Shown in pieces: positions 3,543-64,000 of a stretch of DNA of 64,000 nucleotides. The stretch covers positions 129,238-193,237 of the forward strand of contig JBAYVF010000001.1 in assembly GCA_041674705.1 (NCBI GenBank), read 5' to 3'. Each line of letters starts with the position of its first letter. The stretch's first letter is position 1. The notes below the pieces were generated by a model. That model was not told where the DNA came from. It made no database searches and saw only the letters and a program-made list of their open reading frames with translations. This DNA comes from Candidatus Omnitrophota bacterium. GTDB taxonomy: Bacteria > Omnitrophota > Omnitrophia > Omnitrophales > Aquincolibacteriaceae. The position numbers were made by a program, and so were the translations under genes.

Positions 3543-4175
3543 ATGGTGTTTAAATTCCTGCTTCCCAAAGAAACCAGCTTCTTCAATCTTTTTGATAAAC
3601 AGTCGGATTATGCCGTCCAGGCTGCCACCCATTTTGTGAAAATGGTTGCTGATTATAAAGTGGATGAGACCGAGGTCGGGATCATGAAGGAAATCGAACA
3701 CCTTGGGGATGAAGTAACGCATCAGGTGCTGGATCAGCTCAATGACACCTTCATCACGCCGTTTGACCGCGAAGATATTCACGATCTGGCGAAGAAAATG
3801 GATGATATTGTGGACATGCTTTACACCCTGACCAAGCGTCTTCGTGTTTATAAGATCCTGAGCATGGAGCGAAACCTTACGGAATTTGCCCGCGTGATCG
3901 AAATGTCCGTCAAAGGCGTTTCGCAGGCCGTTAAAGGCCTCCGGGACATGAAAAACAGCAAGGAGATCCTCAAGGCCTGCATTGAAGTGAATAATCTCGA
4001 GAATCTTGGCGATAAGATGCGCGATGATATGTTAGGCGAACTTTTTGAAAAATATGCCAAAGACCCCGTCGCGGTGATCAAGTGGAAAGACATCTATCAG
4101 GACGCGGAAACGGTTCTGGATGTTTGCGAGGACGTCGTGCACGTGGTCGAATCCATTCTCGTCAAACACGCTTAG
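3543..4175 (+). CDS. DUF47 / PhoU-like phosphate-transport accessory protein
   Basis: Begins MVFKFLLPKETSFFNLFDKQ, with an all-helical PhoU-like repeat composition. AAGGAGG RBS upstream of the internal ATG. Immediately precedes a PiT transporter, the classic pairing. Confidence 0.8.
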   Translation: MVFKFLLPKETSFFNLFDKQSDYAVQAATHFVKMVADYKVDETEVGIMKEIEHLGDEVTHQVLDQLNDTFITPFDREDIHDLAKKMDDIVDMLYTLTKRLRVYKILSMERNLTEFARVIEMSVKGVSQAVKGLRDMKNSKEILKACIEVNNLENLGDKMRDDMLGELFEKYAKDPVAVIKWKDIYQDAETVLDVCEDVVHVVESILVKHA

Positions 4176-9769: not shown

Positions 9770-9850
9770 CCCTGGCTTTGAATTTCTTTTTCTTGAAGGT
9801 AGCCAGGGTTGCCCAATTTCAACTTCGTTGAAATGGATAGGTATTGGGAC
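9770..9850. repeat. REP/BIME-like palindromic unit pair (CCCTGGCT...AGCCAGGG + GCCCAAT...ATTGGGAC)
   Basis: Two adjacent hairpin units. The second is a member of the 41-nt family also seen at 16798, 19143, 22144, 54157 and 54199. Confidence 0.8.
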
Positions 9851-16753: not shown

Positions 16754-16838
16754 GTCCCAACCACCTTTAAATTTTTTATAGGGTTGGGACAAGGATGGCC
16801 CCAATTTCAACTGCGTTGAAATGGATAGGTATTGGGAC
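16754..16838. repeat. REP/BIME-like palindromic unit pair (GTCCCAACC...GGTTGGGAC + GCCCCAAT...ATTGGGAC)
   Basis: Second unit differs from the 9811 copy only in the hairpin loop (TGC vs TTC) and one C. Confidence 0.8.
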
Positions 16839-16891
16839 TAAAATGAGACGTGTTTTTTAAAATTTATATCGCATGAAAGGAGCTCCGCGCC

Positions 16892-19135: not shown

Positions 19136-19142
19136 GGTATCA

Positions 19143-19226
19143 GTCCCAATTTTTATCAATTTCAGAGAATCTGAAATTGGGGCAGTCCTTGCCACCGTTT
19201 AATAAAAAAATCTCAGGCAAGGACAG
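19143..19226. repeat. REP/BIME-like unit pair (GTCCCAAT...ATTGGGGC + GTCCTTGCC...GGCAAGGAC)
   Basis: Read on the minus strand it has the same order and orientation as the other loci. It ends 7 nt before the AI-2E ATG. Confidence 0.8.
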
Positions 19227-20563: not shown

Positions 20564-20580
20564 CATTTTTTCTCATAAAA

Positions 20581-20619
20581 GGGGACAGGCTACTTTACCC
20601 TATAAAGTAGCCTGTCCCC
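20581..20619. terminator. bidirectional intrinsic terminator between convergent genes
   Basis: 17-bp perfect stem GGGGACAGGCTACTTTA / TAAAGTAGCCTGTCCCC flanked by AAAA and TTTATTTT. Confidence 0.85.
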
Positions 20620-20620
20620 T

Positions 20621-20971
20621 TTATTTTCGGAAGATTTCCACGCCAACGTTTTTTGCATTCCGAATGGCGTCCGGCTTTGAAATGCGCAGAAGAATATCCC
20701 TCAGTTTGAATTCCCGGAGCAATATCTTGGCAAGGCGTTCCGCCAGAGTTTCTATCAGATAGAAACGGCTTTTTTGGGTAAATTCCGTGGCGCGGTCGGC
20801 GATCTTTTTGTAATTCAAAGCGTCTCGCAGGTCATCCCGCCTTGCGGCCCTTTTGACAGGAGCCGAGAACTCGAGATCGATCAGGACCTTTTGTTTTTTC
20901 TTGCGTTCCTGCGGAAGCGTTCCGATGATACAGGACACCTCAAGACCTTGTATGAAGATTTTTCCATCCAT
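20621..20971 (-). CDS. folB: dihydroneopterin aldolase
   Basis: IFIQGLEVSCIIGTLPQER... and ALNYKKIADR motifs; about 116 aa. Confidence 0.85.
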   Translation of the reverse strand: MDGKIFIQGLEVSCIIGTLPQERKKKQKVLIDLEFSAPVKRAARRDDLRDALNYKKIADRATEFTQKSRFYLIETLAERLAKILLREFKLRDILLRISKPDAIRNAKNVGVEIFRK

Positions 20972-20995: not shown

Positions 20996-21078
20996 TAGAG
21001 TTTCAAAGTGTCAGAGTGTCAAAGTTTCAAAGTGTTACAGTGCTGGCTTTGAACCTCGACACTCTGATACACTGACGC
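20996..21078. repeat. imperfect hairpin with CAAAGTGT-type short direct repeats
   Basis: TCAGAGTGTCAAAGTTTCAAAG (21011-21032) is complementary to CTTTGAACCTCGACACTCTGA (21047-21067) apart from an internal loop. Confidence 0.55.
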
Positions 21079-21103: not shown

Positions 21104-22144
21104 ATGGAAACTATTGTGGAAACAAAACCATTGTGTTCGCTCTTCGGCTCCTGCGGAGGATGCCAGTATCAAGACATGCCTTACGAGGAGGAGCTTTCCC
21201 GCAAAGAGGGGATCCTCAAAGAACTTCTTATAAAGGAGCTCAGCCTTTCCGGCGATGTTTTTGAGCCGATCGCTTCTTCGCCGGAGATTTATCACTACAG
21301 AAACCGGCTGGATCTCACCTTGCGCAAAAGGAATAACGGAGAGCGGCAAATGGGTTTTATGTTACCCGGGACGCAGAGGCTTCAGGAAGTCACGGTTTGC
21401 GCCATAGCCCGTAAAGAGATCAATGATTTCCTGCCCACATTAAAAGAAGAAGCGATTCGCAAATTTCCGGAGGATTATAAGGTCGCGAATCTGGTGGTCC
21501 GCGTGGGAGATGAAGGCAAGGTGTTTTGGGGCGGCATTGGCCGCCGGTCGCTTCGGATGAAAGCGGAAGATTATTTTTGGACAACCGTGCATGGACGGAA
21601 GATCTTTTACGCTCTCGACACATTTTTTCAGGCGAATCTTTCGATCCTCGAAAAGGTTGTTTCACGCATCGAAAGTCTTATTAAGTGGCAGAAGGACACA
21701 GTTTTTCTGGATCTTTATTCGGGCGTCGGCCTTTTCGGGATCGCCCTGGCGGATCGCGCTAAGGAAGTGGTCATGATCGAAGAATGCCGCGATTCTGTGA
21801 CCCTCGCTGAGTTCAATGTCGCTTATCACCGGCTGACACACGTCAAAATGCTTGTAGGAAAAGTTGAGACACACCTCTCGGAGGTCTTGACGGAGCATGC
21901 TGGGAAGCCTTGCGTCGCTTTGATCGACCCCCCGCGCGGTGGCCTTGCAAGTTCTGCGATCGAAACCTTAGGTGCGGCGAAAAGCCTCGAGTCCTTGTTT
22001 TATCTGTCCTGTTCGCCCGAATCGCTTGCGCGGGATCTGAAACATTTGGCGAAGGTCGGCTGGAAGGTCCGGAAGATCATGCCGTTCGATTTTTTCCCGC
22101 GGACGCGACATTTGGAGACATTGGCATGGCTCGCACGTTCCTAG
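21104..22144 (+). CDS. RNA (uracil-5)-methyltransferase, RumA/TrmA family (no TRAM domain)
   Basis: N-terminal Fe-S Cys cluster CSLFGSCGGCQYQ. SAM-binding LDLYSGVGLFG and catalytic DPPRGG...YLSCSP motifs. Confidence 0.82.
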   Translation: METIVETKPLCSLFGSCGGCQYQDMPYEEELSRKEGILKELLIKELSLSGDVFEPIASSPEIYHYRNRLDLTLRKRNNGERQMGFMLPGTQRLQEVTVCAIARKEINDFLPTLKEEAIRKFPEDYKVANLVVRVGDEGKVFWGGIGRRSLRMKAEDYFWTTVHGRKIFYALDTFFQANLSILEKVVSRIESLIKWQKDTVFLDLYSGVGLFGIALADRAKEVVMIEECRDSVTLAEFNVAYHRLTHVKMLVGKVETHLSEVLTEHAGKPCVALIDPPRGGLASSAIETLGAAKSLESLFYLSCSPESLARDLKHLAKVGWKVRKIMPFDFFPRTRHLETLAWLARS

Positions 22145-22800
22145 TCCCAAACCCTATCAATTTCAGAGAATCTGAAATTGGGGCAACCCTTGTCAACCCT
22201 ATAGAAAAAAAACCGAAGACAAGGGTAGCCGAGAAGCACGAACCTCTCGTGTTCAAGGATCTCTTCGGGAATTCCAATCCCGTCGAAATGGAGATCGGAT
22301 GCGGGAAGGGAAAATTTCTCGTGGCTCGCTCGATTGAAAACCCGGGAACCAATTTTCTGGGGGTCGATCGCGTCAGTAAGTTCATGAATATCGGGAAGAC
22401 GCGCGTCCAAAAACGGGCGCTTCCGAACATCCGGTTTCTGCGAGCTGAGGCGCGGGCTTTTTTAACCGAGGCGATCGCGCCCGGAAGCGTGAGTATCTTT
22501 CATATCTATTTCCCGGATCCCTGGCCGAAACGCCGGCATCAGGCCCGCCGTGTTTTCACAGAGGAACTTCTCAGACTGCTTCATTCGCGGCTTGTGGCGG
22601 GAGGGCTGATCGAGATCGCGACCGACGATAAGGACTATTTTACCGCCATGAAGAAAACCATAGCGGTGACCCAGGAACTCTGGGAGAATGTGCGCGAAAC
22701 GGTGAATGAGCGGATCCTGGACGGGTTGAATAAGACCAGTTACGAACTCAAATGGGCGGCTGAAGGCCGGCCTCTTTACTATACGGAGCTTAAGAAGTAA
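22126..22800 (+). CDS. trmB: tRNA (guanine-N7)-methyltransferase
   Basis: VEMEIGCGKGKFL SAM motif and FPDPWPKRRH signature. Start is uncertain: ATG 22126 makes the repeat coding, while GTG about 22248 does not. Confidence 0.8.
   Translation: MARTFLVPNPINFRESEIGATLVNPIEKKPKTRVAEKHEPLVFKDLFGNSNPVEMEIGCGKGKFLVARSIENPGTNFLGVDRVSKFMNIGKTRVQKRALPNIRFLRAEARAFLTEAIAPGSVSIFHIYFPDPWPKRRHQARRVFTEELLRLLHSRLVAGGLIEIATDDKDYFTAMKKTIAVTQELWENVRETVNERILDGLNKTSYELKWAAEGRPLYYTELKK
22144..22226. repeat. REP/BIME-like unit pair in reverse orientation relative to flanking genes
   Basis: GTCCCAAACCCTATCAATTTCAGAGAATCTGAAATTGGGGC followed by ACCCTTGTC...GACAAGGGT. Confidence 0.8.
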
Positions 22801-27194: not shown

Positions 27195-27211
27195 TCTTAA
27201 AGGAGGGCTTG

Positions 27212-27333
27212 CCCCGTTAGAGATTGTCGCATCAGTATTTTATCGAAACGATTCGCAACAGAAGTGAGGAGATCATGGACACCATATTAAAAACAGACGG
27301 AAGCGCTGAAGGCGCTTCCTATCTCTAACGGGG
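27212..27333. repeat. MITE-like element with CCCCGTTAGAGAT / ATCTCTAACGGGG inverted termini (copy A)
   Basis: 13-nt perfect terminal inverted repeat. Subterminal hairpin GGAAGCG...CGCTTCC is shared with copy C. Ends 6 nt before the cysK ATG. Confidence 0.7.
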
Positions 27334-27339
27334 TGAACT

Positions 27340-28263
27340 ATGAATATTTATTCAGACATTACAAAGACGGTGGGGGAAACGCCGCTTGTGCGTTTGAACC
27401 ATCTGGTGAAGGGGCTCGAGGCCACGGTTTTAGTGAAACTCGAGTCCAAGAATCCTCTCGGAAGCGTCAAGGACAGGATCGGCGTTGCCATGATCGAAAC
27501 GGCCGAGAAAAAAGGTCTGCTTAAAAAAGGCGCGATCGTGGTGGAGCCGACGAGTGGAAATACCGGGATCGCCCTCGCGTTTGTTTGCGCGGCGAAAGGA
27601 TACCGGCTGATCCTGACCATGCCGGATACCATGAGTGTGGAACGTCGCCAGCTTCTGAAGATCCTTGGCGCGGAACTTGTGCTGACCGAAGGGGCGAAGG
27701 GAATGCGGGGCGCGGTGGAAAAAGCCGAAGAGATCGTCAAGGCGACACCCGGCGCTTATATGCCGCAGCAATTCAACAATCCCGCGAATCCCGAGATCCA
27801 CCGGGCGACCACGGCCGAAGAGATCTGGAAAGATACGAACGGAACGGTCGATGTCTTTGTGGCAGGGGTCGGGACTGGAGGGACGCTGACCGGCGTCGGA
27901 GAAGTGCTGAAAGAAAGGAAACCTTCTGTTAGAATCGTAGCGGTCGAGCCCAAGGATTCGCCGGTGCTTTCGGGCGGTAAGCCGGGGCTTCACAAGATCC
28001 AGGGGATCGGTGCGGGATTTGTGCCGGGAGTTCTGGATACCAAGGTTTACGACGAGATCCTGCAGGTCCGGCATGAGGACGCGGGCGAGACCGCCCGGCA
28101 GCTTGCCAAGCAGGAGGGGATCCTCGCCGGGATCTCGGCCGGCGCGAATGTTTGGGCTGCGCTCGAGATCGCAAAGCGAAAAGAATCTAAAGGGAAAACC
28201 ATTGTGACCGTCATTTGTGATACAGGGGAAAGGTATCTTTCCACATGGCTTTTTCAGGAATAA
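27340..28263 (+). CDS. cysK: cysteine synthase A (O-acetylserine sulfhydrylase)
   Basis: TPLVRLN...[17 protein letters not shown]-Lys motif; GTGGT loop. Confidence 0.93.
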
Positions 28264-42282: not shown

Positions 42283-42385
42283 CCCCGTTAGAGTCTCAAA
42301 TGACTTTGGCGGAGGAAAGAGCGATCGTTTTCAAGGTTTTTGGGGCAGAAAATTTTTTCAACATTTGGTTAAGACTCTAACGGGG
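42283..42385. repeat. MITE-like element with CCCCGTTAGAGTC / GACTCTAACGGGG inverted termini (copy B)
   Basis: 13-nt perfect terminal inverted repeat; ends 5 nt before the yebC ATG. Confidence 0.65.
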
Positions 42386-42390
42386 GAACC

Positions 42391-43137
42391 ATGTCGGGAC
42401 ATTCAAAATGGGCGAGTATCAAGCATAAAAAGGCGATCGTGGACGCCAAACGCGGCCAGGTCTTTACGAAGTTCATCCGCGAGATCACGGTCGCGGCCAA
42501 AACAGGCGGCGGGGATTTGAACACCAACCCACGGCTTCGCACCGCTATTCAATCCGCCAAGGATTCCAACATGCCGGCCGACAACATCGATCGCGCGATC
42601 AAAAAAGGGACGGGCGAACTGGAAGGCGTGACCTATGAGGAAATTTCCTACGAAGGTTTTGGCCCCGAAGGCGCGGCAGTCCTGGTGGCTTGCCTGACGG
42701 ACAATAAGAACCGCTCGGCTTCCGAGATCCGGAGTCTCTTCAACAAAAATGGCGGCAACATGGGAAGCGCCGGAACGGTGGCGTGGATGTTCGAGAAGAA
42801 AGGTTTTATCGTGATCGCAAAGACCGCGACCACCGAAGACCAACTCATGGAAATCGCGCTTGGCGCCGGGGCCGAAGATATGACCTCGACCGAGACGATG
42901 TTTGAAGTGACGACGGCACCTCAGGATCTTTGGGCGGTCCGTGAGGCCATTGAAAAAGCGAAGATCAAGATCGAGAGCGCGAACCTCACCATGATCCCCA
43001 AAAATCTCGTGAGCGTATCGGCGGACACGGGGCGCAAGGTGATCCATCTGATTGAGGCCTTGGAAGAGCATGACGACGTCCAGAATGTTTATTCGAACGC
43101 GGATATCCCCGAAGAAGTGATGAAAGAACTTGCATGA
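42391..43137 (+). CDS. yebC: YebC/PmpR-family transcriptional regulator
   Basis: MSGHSKWASIKHKKA N-terminus diagnostic of the family. Confidence 0.93.
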   Translation: MSGHSKWASIKHKKAIVDAKRGQVFTKFIREITVAAKTGGGDLNTNPRLRTAIQSAKDSNMPADNIDRAIKKGTGELEGVTYEEISYEGFGPEGAAVLVACLTDNKNRSASEIRSLFNKNGGNMGSAGTVAWMFEKKGFIVIAKTATTEDQLMEIALGAGAEDMTSTETMFEVTTAPQDLWAVREAIEKAKIKIESANLTMIPKNLVSVSADTGRKVIHLIEALEEHDDVQNVYSNADIPEEVMKELA

Positions 43138-43219
43138 CAGACTTCAGACTTCAGACTGGAGACTACAGACTTAAAAACAAGTTTTTTCCTGTAGTCTGTA
43201 GTCTGTGGTCTGTGGTCTC
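43138..43219. repeat. 31-bp imperfect hairpin whose arms are tandem heptamers (CAGACTN / CTGTNGT)
   Basis: Manual pairing gives 24 of 31 Watson-Crick pairs plus 3 G-U. Mismatches recur at the same positions of each 7-nt unit. Starts 1 nt after the yebC stop. Confidence 0.75.
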
Positions 43220-50155: not shown

Positions 50156-50827
50156 ATGAAAAAATCGGTCACATTATCCCCCTCAGCGCTGAGTCTTTTT
50201 AAGAATTGTCCGCGATGTTTTTGGCTTGAGAAGGTCAAAAATATCAAGCGGCCGCGCGGTATTTTCCCCTCACTTCCCGGCGGCATGGATCGTGTGATCA
50301 AGACCTATTTTGACGCTTTTCGCGCCCAAGGGACGCTTCCTCCGGAACTTCGCATCGATGCATTCAAAGGCATTCATCTTTATGACAACCAGGCCCAGCT
50401 TGAGAATTGGCGCGCCTGGCGCACCGGGCTTCAATATCATGAGAATGGCGAGGTTCTCTCAGGGATGCTCGATGATCTTCTCGTTAAAGACGGGGCTTAT
50501 ATCCCGTTCGACTATAAGACCAAAGGCTCGCCTACGAATGAAGAGGATGCGACCAAGTATTATCAGACTCAGCTGGATTGTTACGCGCTGATGCTCGAGG
50601 GGAACGGGCTCAAAACCGCCGGGTATGGTTTTCTGCTTTATTACTCGCCCAAAGAAGTCGGAGAAAATGGCCAGGTGAGTTTTGAGATCCAGCCGATCCG
50701 GATCGGAACGGATACGGCGCGCGCGAAGGATCTATTCCATCAGGCGCTAGCGATCTTAACCGGCCCCGCGCCCAAAGCGGCGCCGAAGTGCGAATATTGT
50801 AGCTGGTTAGATAAGTTCAGAAAGTAA
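50156..50827 (+). CDS. PD-(D/E)XK nuclease, Cas4/RecB-like with four Cys
   Basis: D...FDYKTK catalytic motif, QLDCY motif, N-terminal CPRC and C-terminal CEYC. Confidence 0.68.
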   Translation: MKKSVTLSPSALSLFKNCPRCFWLEKVKNIKRPRGIFPSLPGGMDRVIKTYFDAFRAQGTLPPELRIDAFKGIHLYDNQAQLENWRAWRTGLQYHENGEVLSGMLDDLLVKDGAYIPFDYKTKGSPTNEEDATKYYQTQLDCYALMLEGNGLKTAGYGFLLYYSPKEVGENGQVSFEIQPIRIGTDTARAKDLFHQALAILTGPAPKAAPKCEYCSWLDKFRK

Positions 50828-50836
50828 GATGGCTTG

Positions 50837-50957
50837 CCCCGTTAGAGATTTTCAGGAACGAGGGTATAATAGCGTTCCACCTTTAAATGGGATTAATGTG
50901 AAAGAGAAGCGCAATTTTACGGAAGCGATTTAAAATCGCTTCCTATCTCTAACGGGG
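50837..50957. repeat. MITE-like element with CCCCGTTAGAGAT / ATCTCTAACGGGG inverted termini (copy C)
   Basis: Termini are identical to copy A. It shares GGCTTG 5' flank identity and the subterminal GGAAGCG-loop-CGCTTCC hairpin. Confidence 0.7.
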
Positions 50958-51044
50958 CTTGAGAAATTCAGGAAGTGACCCGAAAATCAAAACCCGGTTT
51001 TGGAAAGCACGCAAAACCAGGTTTTTAAAAGAACGGGGTGAATT

Positions 51045-51329
51045 ATGACGCAGGAGACAACTTTAAAAGTTCTTGTCGAAAAACCAACGGCCCAGAAATT
51101 ACAGGCTTTGAATGTTTTTTCGTGGCCCATTTGGACGAAAGAGGTTTCGAGCTTTGACTGGTTTTACGATGAGCAAGAGATCTGTTATTTTCTGGAAGGC
51201 GAAGTGACTGTGAAGACTCCGCAGGGCGAGGTCTCGTTTGGGAAAGGGGATCTCGTCACATTTCCCCAAGGACTCAAGTGCGTGTGGAATATCAAGCGAG
51301 CCGTCAAAAAACATTACAAGTTCGGATGA
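51045..51329 (+). CDS. small cupin-fold protein (DUF861-like)
   Basis: WPIW...E.CY.LEG...V...G beta-barrel pattern; 94 aa. Confidence 0.65.
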   Translation: MTQETTLKVLVEKPTAQKLQALNVFSWPIWTKEVSSFDWFYDEQEICYFLEGEVTVKTPQGEVSFGKGDLVTFPQGLKCVWNIKRAVKKHYKFG

Positions 51330-53923: not shown

Positions 53924-54105
53924 CTGCCATCAGGAAGATGAAAATTAGAGTTGAGACCGGTTGCATTTTTCTTAAGTGCTGCGTTATGGTCAACTTTACG
54001 GGTTCGCAGTACTTGCACCGTTAACCCGTAAAAATAAATGGAAAACAGGGCGAGATAAGGTATCATGCATCTATCCCAGCTTTAGATTTTTTTATGTAAG
54101 GGGTA

Positions 54106-54239
54106 GTTGGGACAGCCCTGATTTTTATTTTCTTTTCCTGGATGGTAATCAGGGCAGCCCCAATCTCAGCTTTGCTTCGATTGATTGGAATTGGGACTGC
54201 CCCAATTTCAACTTCGTTAAAATTGATAGGTATTGGGAC
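54106..54239. repeat. tandem array of about 3.5 REP/BIME-like palindromic units ending at the downstream ATG
   Basis: TTGGGAC-AG-CCCTGATT...AATCAGGGC-AG-CCCCAAT...ATTGGGAC-TG-CCCCAAT...ATTGGGAC, then C and the ATG at 54241. Confidence 0.85.
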
Positions 54240-63941: not shown

Positions 63942-64000
63942 GTCCCAATTGACAATTAGTGCTTTAAAGAAAATTGGGACTGCATTGATTTCCAATTATT
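63942..64000. repeat. REP/BIME-like unit (GTCCCAAT...ATTGGGAC), array continues off the right edge
   Basis: GTCCCAATTGACAATTAGTGCTTTAAAGAAAATTGGGAC followed by the TG junction. Confidence 0.65.

Follow-up and report, generated by a model that had tools for sequence, protein, structure and literature searches.

Short inverted-repeat elements of an Omnitrophota genome are probably copies of a MITE-like mobile DNA family found in uncultured bacteria of many phyla

A 64,000-nucleotide stretch of a Candidatus Omnitrophota genome (positions 129,238–193,237 of contig JBAYVF010000001.1; hereafter the window) carries three short repeats that are alike at their ends and different in the middle. The preliminary description of this DNA, made from its letters and its open reading frames (ORFs), considered two readings to fit them equally well: a MITE, and a structured RNA with a long closing helix. 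Here we ask what these repeats are, how they came to lie where they do, and what they do to the genes beside them. We conclude, with a probability of about 0.8, that all three are copies of a non-coding, non-autonomous, MITE-like mobile DNA element that is moved in trans. The two readings do not remain equal, because the evidence supports the MITE and does not support the RNA.

The three copies (A, B and C) are present as first described, and each is bounded by perfect 13-nt inverted repeats. Their features, including the flanking duplication of copy C, are as follows.

27212–27333, no strand: copy A, type (i), 122 bp, with the palindrome-bearing end on the right
27212–27224, plus strand: left 13-bp terminal inverted repeat of copy A (CCCCGTTAGAGAT)
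27321–27333, plus strand: right 13-bp terminal inverted repeat of copy A (ATCTCTAACGGGG)
27299–27319, no strand: subterminal palindrome of copy A (GGAAGCGC-TGAAG-GCGCTTCC), from bp 15 off the right terminus
42283–42385, no strand: copy B, 103 bp, with terminal repeats CCCCGTTAGAGTC / GACTCTAACGGGG
50833–50836, plus strand: left 4-bp target duplication of copy C (CTTG)
50837–50957, no strand: copy C, type (i), 121 bp, with the palindrome-bearing end on the right
50921–50943, no strand: subterminal palindrome of copy C (GGAAGCGATT-TAA-AATCGCTTCC)
50958–50961, plus strand: right 4-bp target duplication of copy C (CTTG)

A search of the window for CCCCGTTAGAG with at most one mismatch returned six matches, which are precisely the six termini (0.76 expected); none of 100 shuffled windows gave six. 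Copies A and C have the same termini, as had been noted, and the hairpin GGAAGCG…CGCTTCC that was reported just inside the right terminus of both is real. The paired change attributed to copy B is real too, but it involves two paired positions (12 and 13) rather than one (GAGTC/GACTC versus GAGAT/ATCTC), and pairing at these positions is explained equally well by terminal repeats that differ between subfamilies and by a helix. The 5′ flank GGCTYG precedes all three copies; it is not a feature of the family, because it is local flank sequence, the CTTG part of which is the target duplication of copy C. The interiors were said to be otherwise unrelated, which is correct among the three window copies and incorrect family-wide, because the interior of A is homologous to that of locus L025 and copy B has an ortholog in L056. 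Within the 64 kb, then, the copies are not near-identical to one another.

All three copies lie between called genes, in agreement with the preliminary description: A between a DUF3034 gene and cysK, B between folP and yebC, and C between a PD-(D/E)XK nuclease gene and a small cupin gene. The flanking proteins have their closest relatives in Candidatus Omnitrophota metagenome-assembled genomes (MAGs), and the window forms part of a 122-kb metagenome contig. At copies A and C, a second, independently made assembly (SRR6484325) has exactly the sequence of the window. The interiors hold short, non-conserved ORFs at most; small ORFs of 17 amino acids in A and 26 in B, both ending on the TAA of the right terminus, were set aside because they are unconserved in L025 and L056. 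Copy A has no flanking duplication (CTTG on the left, TGAA on the right), and the empty sites are too diverged to show whether these flanks conceal a 2-bp (TG) duplication. Copy B has neither a flanking duplication (CTCG, GAAC) nor the ATAGG palindrome.

Comparison with close relatives reveals how each copy arrived, and in all three cases some relatives have an empty site. Site A is empty in L136 (CysK 95% identical) and L137 (91%), in which the DUF3034 stop codon is 18 nt from the cysK start and the 18-nt spacer holds a normal AAGGAGG. The window has retained this ancestral motif, and copy A now lies between it and the cysK ATG at 27340. At site B the element is missing in L126 (YebC 95%), L121 (94%) and L124 (84%), and in one of these relatives the folP stop codon and the yebC start are 1 nt apart. 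By contrast, L056 (YebC 92%) carries an orthologous copy B that shares its flanks, has identical termini and has diverged in the centre. Site C is empty in L132 (91%) and L134 (90%), with spacers of 12 and 44 nt, and filled in L131 (93%) by a slightly decayed ortholog of copy C, the right terminus of which is decaying. In the element-free relatives the PD-(D/E)XK gene ends …TGG CTT GAA AAA TTC AGG AAG TGA. The window reads TGGCTTG[C]CTTGAGAAATTCAGGAAGTGA, with [C] standing for copy C, and the uninterrupted sequence of L134 is TGGCTTGAAAAATTCAGGAAGTGA; around the duplicated CTTG, every base of the filled site agrees with the empty one. Two remnants of the sequence that preceded the insertions can thus be placed in the window.

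27200–27206, plus strand: ancestral Shine-Dalgarno site of cysK (AAGGAGG), placed by alignment with relatives that read AAAAGGAGGCACGTATG and AAAGGAGGTTTCCGTG
50958–50978, plus strand: remains of the former 3′ end of the PD-(D/E)XK gene (…L E K F R K *), severed by copy C and 24/25 identical to the functional gene end in L134

Copy C landed within the last codons of the PD-(D/E)XK nuclease gene and duplicated 4 bp, CTTG, as it did so. At cysK, copy A came to lie between the Shine-Dalgarno site and the ATG; copy B landed between folP and yebC. Copies B and C are old and have been inherited vertically.

Because each of the three sites is empty in some relatives whose flanking proteins are 90–95% identical, we regard the repeats as insertions and not as a conserved RNA. 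The idea that they are a structured non-coding or cis-regulatory RNA, with the closing helix and the hairpin as its functional parts, does have points in its favour: the long helix with its matched changes at positions 12–13, the covarying hairpin, the strong predicted folds, and the placement of copies in transcribed spacers directly upstream of genes. A conserved RNA would not, however, be expected to be missing from the orthologous spacers of close relatives. Nor was there an Rfam match, either at the gathering threshold for the window and 37 related loci or at E ≤ 10 for copy A. The copies are randomly oriented with respect to co-directional neighbouring genes (14 versus 17 and 13 versus 18, from crude ORF calls), and both strands fold equally well. 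Direct-repeat flanks, in-frame insertions into ORFs and tandem arrays, all described below, are moreover properties of DNA. We consider the RNA reading largely refuted already and give it hardly any credence.

The claim that the repeats form a family is borne out well beyond the window. We scanned one genome per GTDB species for both termini spaced 75–105 nt apart and found them in at least 119 stretches, against a chance expectation that we estimate at about one match (596 Gb × 31 spacings / 4^22). A scan of metagenomes for one terminus followed by the start of the palindrome matched at least 120 stretches. The hosts among the matches listed include Omnitrophota, Planctomycetota, Elusimicrobiota, Nitrospirota, Desulfobacterota, Bdellovibrionales, Ratteibacteria, Auribacterota, WOR-3, one Clostridia MAG and many lineages of Patescibacteria (Saccharibacteria, Uhr-, Moran-, Doudna- and Kaiserbacteria, and others). 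All of these hosts are uncultured, and the termini are common to more than ten phyla among the matches listed. Neither of two scans found a copy in viral contigs. A literature search with both termini as text returned unrelated primers only, and one for MITEs in these phyla returned nothing relevant. The MITE-like family is new, and it is unusual in its breadth, in the polarity of its flanks, in its covarying subterminal palindrome and in its compatibility with coding sequence.

Family-wide, the terminal inverted repeat is modally 13 bp long and consists of CCCCGTTAGAG followed by two variable bases that are matched between the ends: 102 of 128 copies have identical bases 12–13 at their two ends (33 expected), the variants being AT, AA, AC, GT, GC, TT and TC. 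Past position 13 the two ends are unrelated. One base inside the repeat, at one end or both, lies a palindrome of 17–23 bp, and the rest of the interior is variable. In type (i) copies, which include A and C, the palindrome always begins at bp 15, with GG..CC at its foot and GT after it. Type (ii) copies carry a nested GAGAAC-N4-GTTCTC end and other hairpins. Across 35 ends, full compensatory changes occur at every inner stem position of the palindrome, and its loops are purine-rich (GAA, GCA, AGA, AAA) when read 5′ to 3′ from each terminus. Copies range from 31 to 385 bp and contain no transposase gene. Type (i) copies in metagenomes fall into size classes of 49–50, 62, 65 (the commonest), 68, 71, 74, 83–92, 106–133 and 277–385 nt. 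The 65-nt class consists of two terminal repeats, each with its own palindrome, and would fold as a T shape; mini-copies of 31–32 nt are the repeats alone. Predicted folds are very stable (z = −4 to −7) and alike on both strands.

Such free covariation of the palindrome arms is difficult to square with a protein domain that reads sequence, and recognition may be of a folded single strand.

Marks of mobility are found throughout the family, and the MITE reading draws on them as well as on the empty sites. Identical 4-nt sequences flank 80 of 128 genome copies (1 in 256 by chance) and 60 of 93 in the metagenome set, so the target-site duplication observed directly at copy C is common in the family. 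Three near-identical copies (L036, L044 and L085) occupy unrelated loci in one deltaproteobacterial MAG, each flanked by TAAA, and near-identical copies occur in other multi-copy genomes (two each at L019 and L060). The 4-nt repeat is of the TNAA type, and CAAG also occurs: position 1 is T in 70 of 81 copies, at position 2 A, G and C occur and T is rare, position 3 is A in 74 of 81, and position 4, which is A or G, is A in 67 of 81. A G precedes the repeat at −1 in 52 of 81 copies, and the target is C-rich at +1 to +3. In several places (L102, L090, L033, L104 and L072), tandem copies are spaced by exactly the 4 nt.

These flanks are polar. The 4-nt repeat is non-palindromic, and its orientation is tied to the interior of the element, by 16 to 0 in type (ii) copies and 13 to 2 in type (i) copies. 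Copies with unlike flanks are just as ordered: in 22 copies the left flank is of the complementary class and the right flank of the TNAA class, and the reverse arrangement was found in none (p = 5e-7). Copy A (CTTG…TGAA) belongs to this 22:0 class. Simple duplication by a symmetric transposase does not predict such polarity; an asymmetric synaptic complex could produce it, as could flank bases that travel with the element or recombination at a core.

The last of these sources would make the family a product of site-specific recombination, in which a circular form carries a palindromic 11-4-11 (or 12-2-12) junction, CTCTAACGGGG-TNAA-CCCCGTTAGAG, this junction recombines with targets that look like it, and the 4 nt are a carried crossover core rather than a duplication. 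Serine invertase sites have a 12-2-12 layout. Tandem copies spaced by the 4 nt form exactly this junction, the targets resemble it in their G at −1 and their C-rich positions +1 to +3, and polarity inherited with the element is what a non-palindromic core would be expected to give. But the 22 copies with unlike flanks would be forbidden under a matched core, and the flanking tetranucleotides differ among related copies of one genome (L017; the DAOWBV01 copies). A 4-nt spacer also misfits both the typical tyrosine recombinases (6–8 nt) and the serine recombinases (2 nt), and no recombinase gene recurs near the copies. We judge this explanation unlikely.

Polarity also bears on whether the repeats delimit an inverton, that is, a promoter or leader switch flipped between inverted repeats by a genome-wide invertase so that the downstream gene varies in phase. 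Master invertases that act on many loci with shared repeats exist in Bacteroides. In our family the repeats bracket a promoter-like site (copy C) or the start codon and leader of a pilin (L019, L038), and inversion of Correia elements has been reported (PMC10969869). Frequent flipping would, however, erase the tight coupling between flank polarity and interior, and copies A and C have the same orientation in two independent assemblies. Direct repeats and empty sites would be left unexplained, and no invertase gene was found nearby; we regard such a switch as highly improbable.

A third possibility starts from shape. The whole element can be drawn as a stem with one or two side hairpins, and the single strand so folded might be recognised by its form, as are attC sites, the ends of IS200/IS605 and parvoviral hairpins. 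Palindrome arms that covary almost free of sequence constraint would suit such recognition, as would the purine-rich loops, the orientation-specific insertion and the stability of the folds. Against it, the ends are two-fold symmetric on opposite strands, whereas both IS200/IS605 hairpins act on one strand; the order of the boxes is reversed relative to attC; and no Y1/HUH or integrase genes were found near the copies. Perfect 13-bp repeats combined with 4-nt direct repeats are, besides, the classical mark of double-strand transposition, and we think mobility by a folded strand very unlikely.

For the preferred reading, a MITE-like element moved in trans, we propose a DNA transposase that would act on double-stranded ends and make a 4-bp staggered cut at YNAR targets. 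It would work as an asymmetric complex, and the polarity of the non-palindromic target would in this way become tied to the orientation of the element. We searched for such an enzyme in several ways. In the 239 stretches analysed (119 plus 120, about 1.5 Mb), no terminus pairs with at most one mismatch lay 0.2–6 kb apart except nested, tandem, decayed and mini-copies, and no full-length insertion sequence with the same termini was found. All-against-all BLAST of 810 ORFs returned housekeeping families only, with no recurrent transposase or recombinase near the copies; ORFs adjoining unpaired termini were likewise housekeeping only, and Pfam searches of the window ORFs around the low-GC stretch gave no transposase or recombinase. 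One locus, L151, contains a fragment of an IS1380-family transposase (PF13701, E = 4e-93) 400 nt from a mini-copy; it was rejected as the partner because its downstream end shows no family terminus.

IS1380 nevertheless offers a lead through its relationship with piggyBac, for which the IS1380 transposases have been used as the prokaryotic outgroup (PMC10813416). The left end of piggyBac reads TTAA-CCCTAGAAAGATA-GTC-TGCGTAAAATTGACGCATG, the last part being a palindrome; the 4-nt flank is carried on the excised ends, and an asymmetric dimer is bound to the palindrome of one end only (PMC7351741). One member of the IS1380 family, IS1247, is bounded by 16-bp repeats and duplicates 5 bp (PMC3281130). 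Our family resembles these systems in its TTAA-like flanking repeat of 4 nt (4–5 bp in IS1380), in the asymmetry of its ends, in the palindrome directly inside one end and in the terminus itself, a 13-bp repeat that starts with CCC (CCCC at the ends of our family) and includes TAGA...GATAG. It differs in its target, which is TNAA with N rarely T rather than TTAA, and in its palindrome, the sequence of which is unconserved. The likeness is one of architecture only, and we treat the piggyBac/IS1380-like layout of the ends as a lead and not as a sign of membership.

Among the known systems closest to the family are prokaryotic MITEs such as the Correia/NEMIS elements of Neisseria and ERIC. They too are non-coding, 50–150 bp long and bounded by terminal inverted repeats with short flanking duplications; they adjoin gene starts, can carry promoters and form hairpins in mRNA, and Correia elements have no known transposase (PMC10969869). 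Each of them is, however, restricted to one genus or family, with copies that resemble one another over their whole length and a TA flank, whereas here only the 13 bp and a palindrome at a fixed position are conserved, across more than ten phyla, and the TNAA flank is polar and non-palindromic. Integron attC sites are of similar size (57–141 nt), conserve only their ends and fold, and have a core (GTTRRRY/RYYYAAC) close to our GTTAGAG/CTCTAAC. We rejected them because the boxes are reversed (GTTAGAG...CTCTAAC on both strands versus RYYYAAC...GTTRRRY); the family also differs in having no integrase and no cassette ORFs, its copies being single insertions among housekeeping genes. REP/REPIN elements with RAYT were rejected as well, because no recurrent gene is flanked by the termini and the termini are cross-phylum rather than species-specific.

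What do such insertions do to the genes they adjoin? In the window, the GGGG of the right terminus of copy A lies 6 nt upstream of the cysK ATG, and a GGGGG at copy B lies 4–5 nt upstream of the yebC ATG at 42391. The native Shine-Dalgarno site of cysK has been separated from its start codon by copy A, and that of yebC has presumably been separated by copy B. The terminal GGGG probably replaces the displaced site of both genes, although in the mRNA it would be paired inside the 13-bp helix. Copy C contains a promoter-like site.

50843–50870, plus strand: promoter-like site in copy C (TAGAGA-16-TATAAT, 10/12), oriented towards the cupin gene at 51045

The ortholog at L131 has the same hexamers, and its 16-nt spacer differs by a single A>G change. 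The interiors of the two elements differ by about 6% and the spacers downstream of the element by about 40%; in this comparison of two sequences, the low divergence of the interior relative to the adjoining spacer suggests selection. Copy C may donate a TATAAT promoter to the downstream cupin operon. Both this role and that of the G-run are proposed from sequence and from the comparison of two genomes. Readings of the left terminus in general as a sigma-54 or sigma-70 promoter were rejected, because copy C alone has a good −10 element.

Elsewhere in the family the contacts with genes are closer still. The stop codon of the upstream gene lies inside the 4-nt repeat or the terminus in 20 of 94 cases, and a gene starts within 10 nt of the copy in 14 of 111. 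Fourteen ends run straight into a long ORF in a frame formed by the terminal G and a TG of the flank (G+TG). In five of these 14 ORFs the Pfam profile starts at residues 2–6 (the acetate kinase AckA, GAPDH, the GDP-mannose dehydratase Gmd, the glutamine amidotransferase TrpG and a B12-binding domain), from which we infer that the element landed on (A/G)TGAA start codons and that the start was rebuilt as GTG. Where the flank is TTTA, the terminus reads ...S L T G | F T, and at least eight such ends lead into a type IV prepilin or pseudopilin. At L151, a 50-nt copy and its repeat add 18 in-frame codons to a prepilin leader, and the GFT site is duplicated.

The termini are open in two of the three reading frames. 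Among short copies 37 of 44 (p = 5e-12), and among longer ones 63 of 122, have a length of 2 mod 3, so that the element and its 4-nt repeat together usually amount to whole codons. Many short copies encode read-through peptides (PVRD...ISNG or PLE...SLTG), often as N-terminal extensions from the old ATG. Open frames, a length that with the 4-nt repeat is usually a multiple of 3, rebuilt GTG starts and a rebuilt ...SLTG cleavage site together explain how insertions at gene borders, start codons and leader peptides are tolerated. A precedent exists in the Rickettsia palindromic elements, which insert in frame in protein genes and are translated within the host protein (PMC10969869). They are likewise palindromic and mobile, and the length-plus-4 rule and read-through peptides seen here recall them; yet they are restricted to Rickettsia, are about 100–150 bp long, and have no reported targeting of start codons or prepilin leaders and no TNAA direct repeats.

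A more far-reaching proposal, which we advance tentatively and with the odds against it, is that this is a cross-phylum, ‘gene-compatible’ family. Its termini would have evolved for translation in two frames and for rebuilding start codons, ribosome-binding G-runs and prepilin sites, and its directional insertion would rely on a non-palindromic 4-nt flank that is either carried or read. Such a family would be either a seamless, piggyBac-type counterpart or a T-hairpin strand recognised by shape, neither of which has been described for bacterial MITEs.

If our reading is true, a MITE family extends across Omnitrophota, the candidate phyla radiation, Planctomycetota and others, including small, packed genomes in which mobile DNA is thought to be scarce. 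The parasite would persist there through ends that take the place of the disrupted signals (start codon, Shine-Dalgarno site or leader peptide) and by staying in frame. The polar 4-nt flanks would offer a handle on the transposition or recombination enzyme, and the copies would account for unusual N-terminal extensions, for GTG starts and for duplicated GFT motifs in the gene calls of MAGs, and would provide a marker of strain-level variation. That distant phyla have identical termini would, on the same condition, mark recent gene flow between co-resident uncultured bacteria.

Beside copy C, the PD-(D/E)XK nuclease gene has a doubled 3′ end, and the following segments are involved:

50804–50829, first gene end
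50830–50978, second gene end, split by copy C

The functional end of the gene (TGG TTA GAT AAG TTC AGA AAG TAA) lies immediately upstream of the split one. In L134, the 90% relative with an empty C site, the functional gene end matches the split relic at 24 of 25 positions, whereas it differs from the functional end in the window at 6 of 24. The extra 26 nt could have come from repair, gene conversion or horizontal transfer. The same doubled layout is found in L131, the 93% relative with an orthologous copy C, where the relic is far more decayed. At 76 nt past copy C, the start of the cupin gene (51030–51047, GAACGGGGTGAATTATG) is nearly identical to the right terminus of copy A with its flank (27326–27342, TAACGGGGTGAACTATG); the corresponding cupin start in L131 reads a normal AAAGGAG. 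Another element, now decayed, may have left this sequence in the window.

Copies A and B each contain a short open reading frame:

27276–27329, copy A, 17 amino acids, with GAGGAG upstream
42299–42379, copy B, 26 amino acids

Both frames use the TAA within the right terminus as their stop codon, 10–12 nt ahead of the start of the downstream gene, and translational coupling to that gene is possible. Because neither is conserved in the homologous copy of A (L025) or the orthologous copy of B (L056), these frames probably arose by chance.

Other repeats also occur in the window. A separate family of 55–69 nt, presumably the first repeat family of the preliminary description, has a GTCCCAAT...ATTGGGAC framework around an inner palindrome (CAATTTCA..TGAAATTG), and includes three 42-nt units arranged head-to-tail at 54105–54239. 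Copies of this family, in both orientations, and the remaining repeats are as follows:

9796–9850, 55–69 nt family
16772–16840, 55–69 nt family
19142–19210, 55–69 nt family
22142–22210, 55–69 nt family
54143–54239, 55–69 nt family
63972–63997, 55–69 nt family
43146–43218, 26-nt inverted repeat between yebC and ruvC, with short AGACT/AGTCT-type units (AGACTTCAGACTGGAGACTACAGACT / AGTCTGTAGTCTGTGGTCTGTGGTCT)
20578–20622, perfect 20-bp palindrome with a 5-nt loop (AAAGGGGACAGGCTACTTTA...)
20999–21042, 8-nt tandem repeat (AGTTTCAAAGTGTCAGAGTG...) near this palindrome

The 20-bp palindrome and the tandem repeat both lie within a region of lower GC content at 16–22 kb.

Further copies of the inverted-repeat element lie outside the window. 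L001, another stretch carrying the element, contains a 388-bp composite (3773–4160) in which one element has its subterminal palindrome (GGAAACGCTTCAGTC...GACTGAAGCGTTTCC) interrupted by about 270 bp that include a second, degenerate element. This arrangement indicates that the hairpin loop of one element received an insertion of another. In L151, a prepilin-like gene (1262–1722) carries a 50-nt element copy in frame within its leader (...KKGFT-PFRDTRKCEHSLSLTG-FTLIELLVV), and 330 nt upstream of this gene there is a fragment of an IS1380-family transposase (1–930; PF13701, E = 4e-93).

In three further stretches, sister copies of the element stand one before each of several neighbouring genes for pilins or pseudopilins:

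L019, 6334–7021
L060, 6072–7220
L038, 60–760

The copies in these arrays hold the start codon and the entire leader peptide (for example, TTG-KRKHSLTG followed by FTLIEL). This pattern suggests that the element spread along with pilin gene arrays, or repeatedly into them.
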